Made by a program: the position numbers and the translations under genes. 50,883 nt of DNA, from the NCBI GenBank assembly GCA_026395915.1, contig JAPLXU010000017.1:3023-53905 (forward strand), in the 5' to 3' direction. This document shows, in pieces, positions 2,275 to 19,770 of this stretch; within the stretch, counting starts at the first letter, position 1; every line of letters starts with the position of its first letter. A model generated the notes under the pieces. The model was not told the DNA's origin. It searched no databases and saw nothing but the letters and a program-made list of their open reading frames with translations. The stretch comes from Candidatus Nomurabacteria bacterium. GTDB taxonomy: Bacteria > Patescibacteriota > Minisyncoccia > Phycocordibacterales > UBA9973.

Positions 2275-4050
2275 GTGAATAAAGAATTTTTGGAAATAAT
2301 AAATGGATTTAAACGCACTTTGCGACTCATGGAAAAACCAGAGAAAACTGCTTTAGTTTTCGCGTCTTTCCTTATGCTCATTACTGGAGTTCTCACTAAC
2401 CTACCTGCTGTTATTTTAGGGCGTTTGGTGGATAAAATTGTCGGGGTAGAAAATTTTGATGTGAGTATTGCGGTTCCGTTTATTGCTTTAATAATCGGTA
2501 TAATTCTCATACGCGAAGTGCTAACTGTTGTAAGAAAATATTTTGTTGAAAATGTGGCGACACAAACTGATAAAAAACAGACAGTAAATGTCATTGAGCA
2601 TTTGCTTAAAACAGATATTGCAAATATTAATCAACAGCAAATCGGGTCGCTCCACGGAAGAATTTTTAGATCAATCCAAGGAATGATAAAAATTATCAAA
2701 CTCGGATTTCTCGATTTTTTTCCGGTTTTCTTCAGTGGACTAGCCGCAATTGCTATCGCACTAACTCAAAAACCATTACTGGCTAGCGTAATGGTTTTGG
2801 TAATTCCAGTTGGACTTTTCATCATTGTGTGGCAAGTTTCCTCGCAGAAAGGAATACGAGTGACTTTATTGCGAGGAAAAGAAAAAATCGACGGAGCAGT
2901 CGTTGAGATGCTTGGTGGTATAGAAACAGTGCGAGCATTGAATACTGAAAATAAAGAAGTGGCGAAAGTTGAAGAAGTTGCCGAAGCAATGAGAAAAAAA
3001 GAAATTAGGCATCATATTTTTATGGCGTTGTTTGATTCCGGAAAATATCTCAATGAGGCATTTTTCTATGTCATAGTAATTTCTCTTTCAATTTTTCTCG
3101 CGGCACAAGGAATAATCACAAAAGGCGACATTCTTGTTTATTCTATTCTGTTTTTGAGTATCACAGGACCATTGCGTGAAATTCATAGAATACTCGATGA
3201 AGCTCATGAAAGTTCAATTAGGGTAAATGACTTATATGATTTGCTCGATCAACCGAGAGATGTTTCTTTCCAAGCGAATGACAAAGAAAGATTTGCCTCA
3301 AACAACGCCAACGCAATAGAGATAAACAAACTATCTTTCAAATATGAAAATTCGCTAGTCTTGCAAGATATCAATTTCGTTATAAAGAACGGAGAGAAAA
3401 TCGGCATAGCTGGTGCGTCTGGTTGCGGTAAATCTACGCTCATAAAAATTCTATTACGATTAGTGCATGGCTATTCTGGAAACGTAGAGATTTTTGGCAA
3501 GAATTTGAATACCGTAAGCAGAGAAGAAATTGCGGATTGTATTGCATATGTGCCACAAAAGACACATATATTTTCGGGTTCTATAAAAGACAATATTGTT
3601 TATGGTTGCGAACGAGAGAATATCACAGATGAAGAAGTTATCAGAGCCGCAAAACTGGCGAATTTATATGAAGAGATAAAAAATTCACTCGGAGGATTAT
3701 CGGGCAGGGTCGCCGAGAATGGAAATAACTTGAGCGGTGGACAGAAACAGCGACTCGCTATTGCGCGACTGATATTAAAATCACCAGAACTATTGATACT
3801 TGATGAGGCGGCTTCTGCCCTAGATAATACGAACGAAATCAAAATTCAAAGAAACATTGAGCAATTGTTCAAAGATAAGACGACCATAACAATTGCTCAC
3901 CGACTGACGACGCTCAAAAACACTGATAGGATTTTTGTTTTTGAACGAGGCAGGATAGTCCAAGAAGGAACCTTTGACGGCCTCACCAACCAAAAAGGTC
4001 TCTTCCAAGATTTTTTAAGACAGAAAGAACCTGAGACTTTTTATTTGTAA
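2275..4050 (+). CDS. ABC exporter, fused TMD-NBD (MsbA/multidrug type); start uncertain (2242-2329)
   Basis: Multiple TM segments, Walker A GASGCGKST, LSGGQKQR, Walker B LLILDE, IAHRL. Confidence 0.92.
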   Translation: MNKEFLEIINGFKRTLRLMEKPEKTALVFASFLMLITGVLTNLPAVILGRLVDKIVGVENFDVSIAVPFIALIIGIILIREVLTVVRKYFVENVATQTDKKQTVNVIEHLLKTDIANINQQQIGSLHGRIFRSIQGMIKIIKLGFLDFFPVFFSGLAAIAIALTQKPLLASVMVLVIPVGLFIIVWQVSSQKGIRVTLLRGKEKIDGAVVEMLGGIETVRALNTENKEVAKVEEVAEAMRKKEIRHHIFMALFDSGKYLNEAFFYVIVISLSIFLAAQGIITKGDILVYSILFLSITGPLREIHRILDEAHESSIRVNDLYDLLDQPRDVSFQANDKERFASNNANAIEINKLSFKYENSLVLQDINFVIKNGEKIGIAGASGCGKSTLIKILLRLVHGYSGNVEIFGKNLNTVSREEIADCIAYVPQKTHIFSGSIKDNIVYGCERENITDEEVIRAAKLANLYEEIKNSLGGLSGRVAENGNNLSGGQKQRLAIARLILKSPELLILDEAASALDNTNEIKIQRNIEQLFKDKTTITIAHRLTTLKNTDRIFVFERGRIVQEGTFDGLTNQKGLFQDFLRQKEPETFYL

Positions 4051-4982: not shown

Positions 4983-5055
4983 GGGCCGTTAGCTCACTTG
5001 GTAGAGCGCGCGCATGGCATGTGCGAGGTAACCGGTTCGATCCCGGTACGGTCCA
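4983..5055 (+). tRNA. tRNA-Ala(GGC)
   Basis: Cloverleaf, anticodon arm cgcgc-atGGCat-gtgcg, G3:U70 pair, GTTCGA T-loop. Confidence 0.95.
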
Positions 5056-5058
5056 CAA

Positions 5059-5130
5059 GCATCTTTAGCTCAGTGGTAGAGCGTCCCGTTCACATCGGGA
5101 AGGTCGTAAGTTCGATCCTTACAAGATGCA
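5059..5130 (+). tRNA. tRNA-Val(CAC)
   Basis: Anticodon arm tcccg-ttCACat-cggga; acceptor GCATCTT/AAGATGC. Confidence 0.95.
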
Positions 5131-5154
5131 CCCCCAAAGTTAGGTAAAAAATTT

Positions 5155-5228
5155 GGGCCTATAGTAAAGTGGTATTACACTACATTCGCATTGTAGGGGC
5201 GCGAGTCCGATTCTCGCTAGGTCCACCA
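5155..5228 (+). tRNA. tRNA-Ala(CGC)
   Basis: Anticodon arm ctaca-ttCGCat-tgtag, G3:U70, encoded CCA; T-loop reads TCCGA. Confidence 0.9.
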
Positions 5229-5278
5229 TTTATTAAATATCCATATTTTGTTAATATGAAATTTAAGGGCATGTGGCG

Positions 5279-5317
5279 CCCGCCCGCCATCGCTTCGCTC
5301 AGGCGAAAGCGGGCGGG
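5279..5317 (-). repeat. Palindromic element family A2, 39 bp
   Basis: Reverse complement matches 18086-18124 (1 mismatch); termini as in family A1. Confidence 0.9.
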
Positions 5318-5334
5318 GAATTGGTATATAATTT

Positions 5335-5421
5335 GCCGAAGTGGCGTAATTGGTAAACGCGCTGCGTTCAGGACGCAGTGAGGGTAACCTCGTAAGGGTT
5401 CAACTCCCTTCTTCGGCACCA
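5335..5421 (+). tRNA. tRNA-Leu(CAG)
   Basis: Anticodon arm ctgcg-ttCAGga-cgcag, long variable arm, CCA. Confidence 0.95.
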
Positions 5422-5422
5422 C

Positions 5423-5493
5423 CGGGCCGTAGTATACCGGTAGTACGCATCCTTCGGGAGGATGTAGATTGGGTTCGATTCCCAACGGCCCGA
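5423..5493 (+). tRNA. tRNA-Pro(CGG)
   Basis: Anticodon arm catcc-ttCGGga-ggatg; acceptor CGGGCCG/CGGCCCG. Confidence 0.95.
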
Positions 5494-5531
5494 CATTGCT
5501 TTAGCTTATTGATTGATTTATAATACGGAGT

Positions 5532-5903
5532 ATGAAAAAGGTTGTAAAAAATACAAATAAAAAAGACGAAAAAATGAATCGATATTTAGGCGCGCTTAAT
5601 GAAATACACGGTGAGACTCTTAAAGGGATTAGAGAAGGTTCTATTGTTGTGAATAGAAAACTTGATAAAATTACAGAGACTTTGTCGGAGCATACGAAAA
5701 TTTTAGATAAACACACAGAGATTTTATCTGAACATACAAAAAAGCTTGATTCGCACACAGAAATGATTGGAACTTTGATGGTTGACATGACCATAGTCAA
5801 AGAAGACCTTTCTGTGATAAAAAGCGACTTAAAAAAGAAAGTTGATTATGATGAATTTCAATCTTTAGTTAAAAGAGTTCAAAAAATAGAAGCGAAGATA
5901 TAA
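5532..5903 (+). CDS. Hypothetical coiled-coil protein with heptad repeats
   Basis: EHTKILD/KHTEILS/EHTKKLD/SHTEMIG heptads; TTGCTT-17-TATAAT promoter 7 nt before ATG. Confidence 0.8.
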   Translation: MKKVVKNTNKKDEKMNRYLGALNEIHGETLKGIREGSIVVNRKLDKITETLSEHTKILDKHTEILSEHTKKLDSHTEMIGTLMVDMTIVKEDLSVIKSDLKKKVDYDEFQSLVKRVQKIEAKI

Positions 5904-5957
5904 AAATGATTTTAATAATTAAAAAAACACATGTTAAAAACTTTAAATAAAAATTCA

Positions 5958-5971
5958 AGAGAGAGAGAGAG
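5958..5971 (+). repeat. (AG)7 simple sequence repeat
   Basis: Read directly; lies in a short ORF from ATG 5931 that is out of frame with the 6007 ORF. Confidence 0.9.
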
Positions 5972-6006
5972 TAGCATCCAACTTTTTAAGTTTTACAAAA
6001 ATTTTC

Positions 6007-6834
6007 ATGGATAAAGTACTAAAAAATACTTTAGTTTTTGTTTTTATGTTTGGTTTTTTTGTACCAACTTTTTCTCTTGCCTCTAACACCAACGGCACCA
6101 TAGATTCGACTTTTCGCTATGCTTGGGGAGAAAATATTGGTTTTGTTGATTTTGGTTCATCCGCCGGAAATGTTCATATCACAGATTCTGCGATTTCCGG
6201 TTCTTTCTATGGAGAAAATATCGGCTGGATAGATCTTTCTACAATCACAAATAATAATGAAGGCGTATTGTCCGGTTACGCTTGGGGAGAGAATGTTGGC
6301 TGGGTAGATTTTAGTAAGGTTACCATTGGTTCAGATGGTGTTTTTTCTGGTTCTGCTTATAATGGAAACGTTGGTTGGATAACTTTTGGCGCAGGCGATA
6401 ATAAAGTAGTTACAGATTGGCGGCCATTAAGCGCTCGTCCAAGACGCCATGGAGGAGGACGGCCAATAATTATTCCTTTACCAGCTACTCCTCCAACAAT
6501 TTCCATTCCATCTGCAACACCAACTGTTCCTGTCATTCCACCAATTATAATTCCAACCACCCCGCCTTCAGCTCCCCTCCTTAATGACGCGGGTGGTAAT
6601 TTCTGCAGTTTCTGCATTCCAACTTTCAATAATGGAAGCAAAGGTGAACCAGTCAAAGAGTTGCAGATATTCTTGAATAAAGCGTTGAAGTCAAATTTGG
6701 CAGTTGATGGAAAATTAGGTCCGAAAACATTTGCCGTAATCAAGAAATGGCAAAAAGCTAACGGTCTAAAAGCTGATGGTTTTGTCGGCCCAGCCACAAA
6801 AGCAAAAATGAATTTTGTTATTATTAATAAATAA
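6007..6834 (+). CDS. Secreted protein: YAWGENxGWxDF repeats, Pro-rich linker, C-terminal peptidoglycan-binding domain
   Basis: Signal peptide, four GENIGW-like repeats, PG_binding_1-like VKELQIFLN..VDGKLGPKT..WQKANGLKADGFVGPAT. Confidence 0.85.
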   Translation: MDKVLKNTLVFVFMFGFFVPTFSLASNTNGTIDSTFRYAWGENIGFVDFGSSAGNVHITDSAISGSFYGENIGWIDLSTITNNNEGVLSGYAWGENVGWVDFSKVTIGSDGVFSGSAYNGNVGWITFGAGDNKVVTDWRPLSARPRRHGGGRPIIIPLPATPPTISIPSATPTVPVIPPIIIPTTPPSAPLLNDAGGNFCSFCIPTFNNGSKGEPVKELQIFLNKALKSNLAVDGKLGPKTFAVIKKWQKANGLKADGFVGPATKAKMNFVIINK

Positions 6835-6848
6835 AAAAATATATAATT

Positions 6849-7955
6849 ATGAAAAAAATATTTTTAACTGTATCTTATCTTTTAGTCACTATTTTAGTCG
6901 GAGTCACAGTCGTTTATGCGGGCAATCTTACTCCACCCGGACCAGTCGCAAATACAATGTATAGCTTGACTGATATATTCAACCTGTCAGCAGGCACGAC
7001 TACGACATTAGGAACTGGGGTCATACCCACGACACCTGCTTCAATTGTCGCAACTGGTAAAACTTTAACAGAAGTCTATGATGCCATATCCGCCCAGCTT
7101 GGTATTTTATCTGCTGGTAAAATTGCTAAAAACATTTCTGCTTTCGGGTTTACTGGCGCTCTTTACGGAGATGTTGATGCTTCTAAAGTTCTTACTTCGG
7201 CCACATATGCGGGTACTATGGCAGATAAGACAGGATTAAATGTTGCCTCTACTGCTCAATCTCAAGCAGGTGGCGTAAATTACTTTACGGCGGCTCAAGG
7301 TTATTATGATGGCACAGCGAAAGTTTCTGCCACAGACGCGCAGATTGTGGCTCTTAATTCTAGTTTAGTCACTGGCAACATAAAAAGTGGCGCGACTATT
7401 TTCGGAGTTGCAGGAAGCGTCAGCGGAGGTTCTTCTGCCGGTTTTTTAAAAACTAATCAAACTATATGCTACGACACAGCAGGTAGTGTCGTAGCCTGCG
7501 CAGGCACTGGTCAAGATGGAGAACTGTTAAAAGGCACAGCCCGCTCTTATACTGACAACAATGATGGCACTATTACAGACAATTCTACTGGTCTTGTCTG
7601 GCAAAAATGCTCAAAAGGTTTAAGTGGCACCATTTGTGAGACTGGTTCAGCTGTAACTGCGACTTGGGCGGATGCGCTTACCTATTGCAATGCTAATACT
7701 GCTACTCTTCCCGGTAGTGGTTGGCGTTTGCCGAATGTCTATGAGCTTTACAGTCTGGTCGATTTCGGAGTCGCGAGCGCTCCATTTATCAATACCAATA
7801 CAACTGCGTTTCCCGCTACAGTGAGTGCCAACTACTGGTCATCTACTTGTCGGCCTGCTAACTTCACGTACGCCATGCTCGTGAACTTCAACAACGGCTT
7901 CACGAACGGCTACACTAAGACCAATATCCTCTATGTTCGCTGTGTCCGAGGATAA
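6849..7955 (+). CDS. DGR target protein: secreted, DUF1566/Lcl C-type lectin-fold C-terminus
   Basis: Signal peptide; YTDNNDGTITDNSTGLVWQK, WRLPNVYEL, YWSST..YVRCVR; VR at the 3' end. Confidence 0.93.
   Translation: MKKIFLTVSYLLVTILVGVTVVYAGNLTPPGPVANTMYSLTDIFNLSAGTTTTLGTGVIPTTPASIVATGKTLTEVYDAISAQLGILSAGKIAKNISAFGFTGALYGDVDASKVLTSATYAGTMADKTGLNVASTAQSQAGGVNYFTAAQGYYDGTAKVSATDAQIVALNSSLVTGNIKSGATIFGVAGSVSGGSSAGFLKTNQTICYDTAGSVVACAGTGQDGELLKGTARSYTDNNDGTITDNSTGLVWQKCSKGLSGTICETGSAVTATWADALTYCNANTATLPGSGWRLPNVYELYSLVDFGVASAPFINTNTTAFPATVSANYWSSTCRPANFTYAMLVNFNNGFTNGYTKTNILYVRCVRG
7807..7950 (+). repeat. DGR variable repeat (VR)
   Basis: Ungapped alignment to 8515-8658 (offset 708), 17 mismatches. 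Confidence 0.97.
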
Positions 7956-8000
7956 TTTGGTTATTTGGGTATTTGTTCATTTTGCATTTTTTTAAATCCA

Positions 8001-8360
8001 ATGGCTCAATATTCTCATCTTCCTATATATAACACTGCATTTATTCTGCTTCGCGAAATGTATGAGCGGGTGCCGAAGTTTGGAAAACAATACAAATATT
8101 TATTGGGAGAAAAAATTATCGGAGCGAATATTGAAATTATCCGTCTAATTCTCGAGACGAATAATACTCGCGATGCGGTCAAGAGAAAAATTCTGCTTGA
8201 GCATCTAGTTTGGAATTCCGAGTCGATTATTATTTTCTTACGGATAGCGAATGAACTAAAGCAATTAGGAGGGGAAAAAAGTTATCTTTATCTTCTTGAA
8301 AAAACGGTAGCTCTTTCAAAACAAGCTGAGGGCTGGAGGAAAAGCGTTTCTAGAATTTAG
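8001..8360 (+). CDS. avd: DGR accessory variability determinant (Avd, four-helix bundle)
   Basis: HLPIY..FGKQYKYLLGEKI..LRIANEL..LSKQAEGW pattern; lies between target and TR. Confidence 0.88.
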   Translation: MAQYSHLPIYNTAFILLREMYERVPKFGKQYKYLLGEKIIGANIEIIRLILETNNTRDAVKRKILLEHLVWNSESIIIFLRIANELKQLGGEKSYLYLLEKTVALSKQAEGWRKSVSRI

Positions 8361-8514
8361 AAATGTGTCCCCAGAATTTATGATCCGCAGGATTATAAAG
8401 CGAGGGTTTGGGAATTCAGTTTCCGCTCTTTGTTGTCTTTTGAGTTTAATTTCAGAAAAAAAAGATAACAGAGGATAAAAGTACTCGATGGTCACGGACA
8501 GTCGGAAACTTCTT

Positions 8515-8658
8515 CGTTTCCCGCTACAGTGAGTAACAACTACTGGTCATCTACTTCACGACCTGCTAACTTCACGAACGCCATGAACGTGAACTTCAAC
8601 AACGGCAACACGAACAACAACAATAAGACCAATAGCAACTATGTTCGCTGTGTCCGAG
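8515..8658 (+). ncRNA. DGR template repeat (TR)
   Basis: AAC-rich copy of VR with 15 in-frame AAY codons; between avd and RT. Confidence 0.97.
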
Positions 8659-8697
8659 CACTCCCGCCTCCAGTCCCCAGTCTGTTTTATATTTCTT

Positions 8698-9800
8698 ATG
8701 TCAACTATCTTTACATTAGAAAAGCTCTATAAGGCATATAAGGAATGCCAAAAAGGCAAGAAAAACACAATTAACGCACTTTGTTTTGAAGTGGAACGGG
8801 AGAAAAATTTAATACTGCTTCTCAATGAGCTTCAAAGTGGAACATACGAGATATCGCGTTCTGTTTATTTTATTGTTACGAATCCGACTGCCCGTGAGAT
8901 ATTTGCCGCTGATTTCCGCGACCGGATAGTGCATCATCTTTTATGCAATGAAATTCAAAATATATTTGAAGCGGATTTTATTTCTGACTCATATGCAAAC
9001 AGAAAGAGAAAAGGTACGCATAAAGCTGTAGCGCAACTTCAAAAATATACTAGAGAAGCAAAGAGCAAAACAAAGAATGGATACTATCTTAAGCTTGATG
9101 TAGAGAGTTTTTTTTGTTCGATCAATAGAGAAATTCTGTATTCTATTGTTGAGAAAAAGATTAGAGATTGTTCACAACCTGTCGGGGGGGGGCTTCGAAG
9201 GAAATGAATTTAATACAGTGGCGAAGTGAGACGCTCTCCCTTGCAAAAAAAATAATTTTTCACGACCCGACGAAAAATTATTTTTATAAAGGTGATCCAA
9301 AGAAAAAAGCTCTTATTCCTCCTCATAAATCACTTTTTTGCGTCAAAAATAAAGGCTTACCGATTGGCAATCTCACTAGTCAGTTCTTTGCAAATGTGTA
9401 TCTCAATGAGCTCGATCATTTTGTGATTGACACCCTTGGCATTGAAAGATATATCAGATATGTTGACGATTTTGTTATAGTTCACGAAGACAAGAATCGG
9501 TTAACATCTGTTACGAAATCTATAGACATCTTTTTGAAAGAGATACTCGGTTTACGAATTCATCCTAAGAAAATATATCTTCAAGAGATTTACAAAGGCA
9601 TTGATTTTTTGGGCTATTTTATCAAACCCTCTCATATATTAGTTCGGCAGAGAGTAGTTCGGAGGTTTAAAAATCGTTTATATCAAAATATTGACGAAGA
9701 AGGATTTTTACTAGTTTCTAACATTCCAATGATACAGTCTTATCTAGGACATTTTGGACATGCAAATACTTTTAATCTGAAGAAGAAATTGGCAAGATAG
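8698..9800 (+). pseudogene. DGR reverse transcriptase, frameshifted at G9 tract 9184-9192 (possibly phase-variable; 367 aa if G10)
   Basis: N-half REIFAADFRDRIVHH, KGTHKA, YYLKLDVESFF; C-half GLPIGNLTSQFFAN, YIRYVDDF, GIDFLGY; the two frames overlap across the G tract. Confidence 0.93.
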
Positions 9801-9931
9801 AACATCTTTAGACTCTTTTATGGTATATTTAAGTAGTAAGGATTGTTTTTATCTGTAGCGGGTGGTCGCACTCACATAGGCACATATGTTGGAGTTTCGC
9901 CATCACCCGCTTCAAATGGAAATAATTTCTC

Positions 9932-9970
9932 ACCCAGCACCAAAACTCTGTTTTGGTGCTGGGTTTGTTT
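9932..9970 (+). terminator. Intrinsic terminator
   Basis: 15-bp perfect stem acccagcaccaaaac-tct-gttttggtgctgggt then T-rich tail. Confidence 0.8.
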
Positions 9971-19740: not shown

Positions 19741-19770
19741 TTGACTTTACCTGTCGGGGGGGGGTAGACT
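19741..19770 (+). promoter_or_regulatory. Putative sigma70 promoter with a G9 tract in the spacer
   Basis: TTGACT-18 nt (ttacctgtcGGGGGGGGG)-TAGACT upstream of the 19799 ORF. Confidence 0.65.

Follow-up and report, generated by a model that had tools for sequence, protein, structure and literature searches.

The 50,883-nt stretch of DNA analysed here (the window; Candidatus Nomurabacteria bacterium, GenBank assembly GCA_026395915.1, contig JAPLXU010000017.1) harbors a diversity-generating retroelement (DGR) at positions 6849–9800, the reverse transcriptase (RT) gene of which changes frame at a run of nine guanines (G9). Based on the results of bioinformatics analysis, the chances are about even that this is an authentic DGR that a slipped-strand repeat keeps OFF, probably in a reversible manner. 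A wider reading, to which we lean slightly less, is that targeted hypermutation is under stochastic heritable on/off control, the DGR enzymes (RT here, Avd in most relatives) carrying hypermutable repeats that form a second-order contingency switch. The first-pass annotation of the window had described a complete DGR with a secreted DUF1566/CLec target. The DGR and its Lcl_C target were recovered, whereas the completeness was not, as the RT is out of frame at G9 in the window and in the contigs of all four public sequencing runs compared.

Cassette anatomy and the repeat pair

All of the components of the cassette are found on the + strand, in the order target (Lcl_C/DUF1566), Avd, template repeat (TR) and RT. 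The features are as follows:

6849–7955, + strand: target gene (368 aa), with a hydrophobic N-terminal helix, a middle part with a poor model and, at the C-terminus, an Lcl_C/DUF1566 domain that contains the variable repeat (VR)
7807–7950, + strand: VR, the final 48 codons of the target, a 144-bp ungapped match to TR
7931–7950, + strand: 3′ end of VR resembling an initiation of mutagenic homing (IMH) site, 20 bases identical to the end of TR, with divergence beyond
7965–8360, + strand: Avd-like gene, probable start ATG 8001, weak profile matches
8515–8658, + strand: TR, with 47 A and 15 in-frame AAY codons
8698–9207, + strand: N-terminal part of RT, frame 1, the start of which fits the starts of homologues; TGA at 9205–9207 after the G run
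9168–9800, + strand: C-terminal part of RT, frame 0, with IGNLTSQ, YVDD and thumb; ATG at 9204
9184–9192, + strand: G9 homopolymer, at which the frame changes, located in a variable loop flanked by conserved RT blocks
9932–9964, + strand: terminator-like hairpin (15-bp stem and T run), which ends the cassette ahead of secA

VR and TR align over exactly 144 bp with no gaps, and the identity ends at both borders. Fifteen of the 17 mismatches fall on TR adenines, while the other two are found at TR C8557 (VR G7849) and TR G8635 (VR T7927). With A making up 47 of the 144 TR bases, a hypergeometric test gives a probability of ~7 × 10−7 for at least 15 of the 17 mismatches to be at A. In the frame of the target, TR contains 13 AAC and 2 AAT codons, and 11 codons within the repeat differ between VR and TR. 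Thus, the repeat pair was reproduced as it had been described from the sequence alone, including the ungapped length, the number and position of the mismatches and all of the 15 AAY codons. At position 7849, the window has G (Cys codon), and the contigs of all four public runs have C (Ser codon), which is the letter of TR; the G of the window either stems from the assembly or is a variant of low frequency. With the letter of the runs, 16 mismatches remain, 15 of them at A.

Neither a GC-rich inverted repeat nor a stable fold was found 3′ of VR by inverted-repeat and folding analyses. According to the cited sections of Wu et al. (2018, PMC5758913), an inverted repeat after VR is present in only 34% of DGRs. 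A search of the whole genome with TR, which had been proposed as a check, revealed no remote VR. Two partial matches were obtained within Lcl_C paralogues, at C8:417–556 (74%) and C3:52504–52582 (81%), and were rejected as current VRs: only 18 of 40 and 22 of 62 differences, respectively, fall on A. Since their differences from TR are not A-specific, these two matches are not current targets of the element. The paralogous genes themselves (C8:180–557 and C3:52453–52836 of the source genome, G000), the C-termini of which match TR at 74–81%, may be former or foreign DGR targets.

Residues 240–367 of the target protein belong to the Lcl_C family (Pfam; E-value, 2.1 × 10−29). The AlphaFold model of the target, built with 38 sequences, has pLDDT values of 85–98 across about residues 205–368. 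The top Foldseek match of the model in PDB is the C-terminal domain of Legionella Lcl (8q4e_A; E-value, 5.9 × 10−5; TM, 0.69), and the next matches are C-type lectin-like chains. The proposed structure prediction thus yielded, for the target, a C-terminus that is predicted to adopt the C-type-lectin fold, a variation-tolerant class, with Legionella Lcl as the nearest structure. The N-terminal helix looks like a signal or anchor. The product of the Avd-like ORF (open reading frame) matches Pfam bAvd (6.5 × 10−9; 36.7 bits, under the 40-bit cut-off) and NCBIfam DivGenRetAVD (1.1 × 10−4, under the curated cut-off), and reaches 4 × 10−13 with a hidden Markov model built from the Avd proteins of relatives; no match was found among PDB sequences.

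The frame break and the repeats of related elements

The RT is encoded by two ORFs, 8641–9207 and 9168–9800, which lie in different frames and between which the break occurs at G9. The upstream ORF covers positions 10–91 of the Pfam RVT_1 family, and the downstream ORF covers positions 111–203. Alignment with homologues places the RT start at 8698, which leaves a gap of 39 nt between TR and RT. The catalytic half of the enzyme (motifs 3–7 and thumb) is found downstream of G9, in the other frame, and a run of either ten or seven guanines gives a single RT frame of ~367 aa from 8698. Each half can be aligned collinearly, at 67–72% identity, with RTs of 361–398 aa that have no interruption. The loop that harbors the G run varies in length and sequence among the homologous RTs, and no further stop or frameshift was found in either half besides the frame change at G9.

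The best PDB match of the RT is 8ub7_A (a 328-aa "Reverse transcriptase"; E-value, 1.8 × 10−19), which we take to be a Bordetella phage enzyme; a group II intron maturase matches at 8 × 10−9. The motifs IGNLTSQ, with its SQ dipeptide, and YVDD are present in the C-terminal ORF, and SQ in motif 4 together with YxDD are marks of the DGR clade of RTs (Schillinger et al. 2012, PMC3521204). From the motifs and the best PDB match, the RT is classified as a member of the DGR clade. The identity of the element as a DGR is borne out by the A-specific VR/TR differences, the RT with SQ and YVDD, the match to 8ub7_A, the Avd-like gene and the Lcl_C target.

Twelve public sequencing runs contain all or part of the stretch, and four of them (X1, X2, X7 and X8, from three studies) were compared with the window. 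Two of the four may represent the source sample, but X7 and X8 carry no such mark. The comparison is one of contigs, not reads, and contigs drop rare variants. The contigs of all four runs cover 7559–9639 or beyond with no gaps, and the sole letter change is that at 7849. The presence of G9 in four out of four runs indicates that the dominant population has the frame break in its DNA, over the period 2022–2025. The VR of the main contig is likewise the same in all four runs, and a single VR is what would be expected of an element that is OFF. One contig of X1 (depth of 8.4 against 27) joins 7793 to 7928 with undefined letters between them, and may represent a second VR haplotype or a paralogue. 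Parts of 6467–7400 are thinly or not covered in X2, X7 and X8, and no conclusion was drawn from this. When contigs of JGI metagenomes were searched for runs of other lengths, with a pattern consisting of the flanks and 5–14 free bases, no matches were obtained.

RT homologues were found in 80 of 200 genomes of the family, and 111 RT loci were collected (the window, L006 and L014–L122). An Avd-like ORF is present in 99 of these loci, in 78 of which it is reversed relative to RT, in six it lies on the same strand, and in 15 it was left unclassed. At the start of 59 of the 99 Avd-like ORFs there is a poly-C run of 7–13 bases; these runs occur within the range L021–L114, at the 5′ end of reversed avd genes, where they adjoin or overlap the RT start. 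Of the 59 runs, 16 are in frame with an upstream ATG and three with no start codon other than GTG or TTG; the other 40 are out of frame. At eight loci lacking poly-C, the same avd region contains a dinucleotide repeat of (GA), (GT), (CT) or (CA).

Split RTs were found at six of the 111 loci: the window (G9), L019 ((GA)10), L025 ((GA)6), L117, L080 and L088. The RTs of L019 and L025 are split exactly at the GA repeat, in the loop that corresponds to the G-run loop of the window, whereas the RT of L117 has a frameshift with no repeat, and those of L080 and L088 have in-frame stops. An in-frame counterpart of the G run was found in locus L123 (the contig of protein P0017), the RT N-half of which shares 67% identity with that of the window: at the same loop it has G10, in frame, in an intact RT of 361 aa. 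No VR/TR pair was detected in the 4.8 kb available for L123, the contig of which ends 1.2 kb before RT. In the RT of P0052, GGG is encoded at the loop with mixed codons. At L018/L148, L147 and L149, (GA)12–27 is located directly ahead of RT.

A second DGR was identified in the same genome, outside the window (contig C4 of G000; locus L006, 1348–3500). Its RT is intact (333 aa; minus strand, L006 1348–2349), and its Avd-like ORF (2384–2773) is reversed, matches DivGenRetAVD at 2.1 × 10−13 and contains a run of eight cytosines in frame. Its repeat pair is 105 nt long (2790–2894 and 3286–3390; 82% identity), and the differences occur mainly at A of the RT-proximal copy. The arrangement is the TR-(avd)-RT typical of the candidate phyla radiation (CPR), with avd reversed. 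The RTs of the two cassettes are ~44% identical across the C-half, and the TR and avd arrangements differ.

Only five G or C runs of at least eight bases are found in the 812-kb genome. One is the G9 of RT, another is the C8 of the second DGR, which forms codons 5–7 of its Avd-like gene, and a third is a G9 in a promoter spacer. The remaining two, C4:54278–54286 and C11:16169–16176, both belong to a GC-rich palindromic element, the copies of which are found between dnaA and rpmH in one case and in frame within nusA in the other. At the level of the family, a nine-base G/C run is missing from 91 of 201 genomes, and in three genomes (G127, G132 and G140) the sole run of at least nine bases adjoins RT.

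Readings of the frame break

If the element is a DGR switched by its G run, RNA of TR would be reverse-transcribed with errors at adenines, and the resulting cDNA would replace VR at the 3′ end of the gene for a surface-exposed lectin-fold protein. Past activity of this kind would have written the present VR. The element would be genetically OFF now, with the catalytic half of RT shifted out of frame by G9. Slipped-strand mispairing during replication, with a gain of one G or a loss of two, would restore the full RT, and the G run would serve as a hypermutable switch through which hypermutation is itself phase-variable. The lectin tip would in that case be diversified in bursts, and a useful VR would be frozen during the OFF periods. 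In favour of this reading are the scarcity of such G/C runs in the genome, the in-frame G10 of L123, the repeats in the avd genes and RTs of the family, the absence of any other lesion in RT and the single VR of the four runs. Such a mode of action presumes a useful rate of slippage, activity of the G10 form and maintenance of the run by selection.

Several observations weigh against a switch of this kind. No variation in the length of the G run was found among the contigs of the four runs, and no contig breaks at it. No in-frame allele of the window RT was found among 5.8 billion protein sequences; of these, 1594 match the N-half of RT at an E-value of ≤10−10, and the best full-length protein is 74% identical to it. 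A long G run in the RT loop was detected in only one (L123) of the 17 distinct relatives that share the architecture. All three RT-internal repeats (window, L019 and L025) are out of frame, and the avd runs are in frame in about one-third of cases, the same proportion that unselected run lengths would give. The gene could also have died simply because the G9 run is a mutational hot spot.

The latter possibility leads to recent plain inactivation, in which a DGR active until recently lost its RT through deletion of one base in a G run prone to mutation, decay is beginning and the run has no role in switching. This explanation is possible, if rather doubtful. It agrees with the presence of G9 and one fixed VR in all four runs from 2022–2025, with the lack of a detected in-frame allele, and with the three further RTs of the 111 loci (L117, L080 and L088) that are broken in the absence of a repeat. 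It also has precedents in the cases presented by Schillinger et al. (2012, PMC3521204, Fig. 4C legend), in which RTs are disrupted by a frameshift, a nonsense mutation or an insertion sequence, VR and TR differ at A only, and the state is read as a very recent inactivation. The element of the window resembles these cases in its frameshifted RT and nearly A-only VR/TR differences. Unlike them, its break falls within a long G run, a relative has that run in frame, and repeats in DGR accessory genes form a family-wide pattern. Further points against plain inactivation are the absence of a second lesion from both halves of RT and the presence of just one non-A difference between VR and TR when the letter of the runs at 7849 is used. 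In addition, the G run is retained in frame in a relative (L123) that is 67% identical, and long G/C runs, which turn up repeatedly in DGR accessory genes, are nearly absent from the rest of the genome.

Recoding, by RNA polymerase slippage or by a −1 ribosomal shift on G GGG GGG, would give constitutive low DGR activity, and is improbable. Long homopolymers are slippage sites, and either a −1 shift or an extra G in the mRNA would link both frames. However, no stimulatory RNA structure was found: the fold of 9193–9270 has a z-score of +0.75, and 160 of 200 shuffled sequences fold as well. The same VR in all four runs also argues against continuous activity.

It is very improbable that the RT works as two pieces that assemble, or that the RT of the second DGR serves the TR of the window in trans. 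The former agrees with the overlap of the ATG at 9204 with the upstream TGA as ATGA (9204–9207), but this Met is not conserved in the loops of homologues. The latter agrees with the intact 333-aa RT on C4, which has a repeat pair of its own; against it stand the identity of only ~44% between the two RTs over the C-half and the differing TR and avd arrangements. Finally, homopolymers are error-prone and the window does differ from the four runs at 7849, but a sequencing or assembly error hiding a true G10 and a whole RT is hardly credible in view of G9 with no gaps in independent contigs from four out of four runs and three studies.

DGRs are usually treated as always-on mutators that are limited only by expression. 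If the repeat switch proves true, it would explain both the many inactive-looking environmental DGRs with clean VR/TR pairs and the way in which a working VR escapes overwriting. For annotators, a split RT at a homopolymer in genomes such as this one does not necessarily indicate an error or a dead gene.

Related systems and genomic setting

As a DGR, the element is one more member of those of Patescibacteria, which are well known, and has the less usual B1 order. The DGR of Bordetella phage BPP-1 (mtd-avd-TR-brt; B1 architecture of Wu et al. 2018, PMC5758913) shares with it the order, the strand, the adenine-specific differences and a C-type-lectin target. Unlike that of BPP-1, the DGR of the window is chromosomal, targets Lcl_C/DUF1566 rather than Mtd, has no GC-rich inverted repeat after VR and only 39 nt between TR and RT, and its RT frame is broken at G9. 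The LdtA DGR of Legionella pneumophila, which belongs to category "d" DUF1566/CLec2 (Wu et al. 2018, PMC5758913), has the same class of surface target with a diversified C-terminus; the element of the window differs from it in phylum (Patescibacteria, going by the names of homologues) and in having a predicted signal or anchor helix rather than a lipoprotein signal. The DGRs of CPR bacteria (Wu et al. 2018; clade 2 of Roux et al. 2021, PMC8144416; cited sections of both) come from the same host group. In the CPR set of Wu et al. (2018, PMC5758913, same sections), the B3 order accounts for 90% and B1, the order of the window, is not usual.

The poly-G/C contingency loci known from Neisseria, Campylobacter and Haemophilus (for example the lgt genes, PMC2192423; for Campylobacter, the review PMC8355987) are similar to the RT of the window in having an intragenic G run of at least eight bases that sets the frame and is rare elsewhere. 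In contrast to these loci, the putatively gated gene codes for a mutator enzyme and not a surface structure, and the host is an uncultured ultrasmall bacterium. A frame-setting homopolymer, another run length at the same loop in a relative and the rarity of such runs, which are features of contingency loci, were all found in the case of the RT; length variation in the population was not found in the contigs. Full-text searches of the literature, supplements and Paul et al. 2017 aside, revealed no published description of a repeat-gated DGR RT or Avd. The word "homopolymer" is missing from the available parts of Wu et al. (2018, PMC5758913) and Roux et al. (2021, PMC8144416), supplements not included.

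The cassette is located among chromosomal genes: an ABC transporter, D-Ala-D-Ala ligase, five tRNA genes (4983–5494), a 123-aa ORF and a peptidoglycan-binding protein (PG_binding_1) precede it, and secA, Mur ligases and gyrA follow. None of the 21 neighbouring ORFs matches a phage family, in agreement with the first-pass annotation, which had placed the DGR in the chromosome with no phage genes nearby. Homologues of the 123-aa ORF, the peptidoglycan-binding protein, the target, Avd and RT are missing from all of the 13 same-genus secA loci, and therefore the 4.4-kb block 5532–9964 is an insertion in the source genome. In three of ten same-genus secA loci, a tRNA gene (tRNA-Pro-cgg in two) is found 165–620 nt ahead of secA. 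The same-genus genomes searched yielded no RT of the window type; their best matches are 39–44% identical, which is the level of the other DGR type. Among 400 other genomes of the order, the window-type RT is present in only nine (E-value ≤ 10−35).

Other repeats were observed in the genome. The G9 of the promoter spacer (19756–19764) fills the 18-nt spacer of a promoter-like site, TTGACT-18-TAGACT (19741–19770), between divergent genes, and the gene that follows is a 120-aa ORF of no known family. This run and the G9 of RT are both preceded by the same 7-mer. In three of the four runs, contigs start or stop exactly at the promoter run, unlike at the run of RT, and these breaks may reflect length heterogeneity. 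The genome contains only five dinucleotide repeats of at least seven units, one of which, (AG)7 at 5958–5971, lies 35 nt upstream of the start codon of PG_binding_1. At C7:211–224, C7:34631–34644 and C14:50715–34 of G000, (GA)7–10 is flanked by the inverted arms TTTAC and GTAAA, and these sites look like hairpins with a GA-repeat loop.

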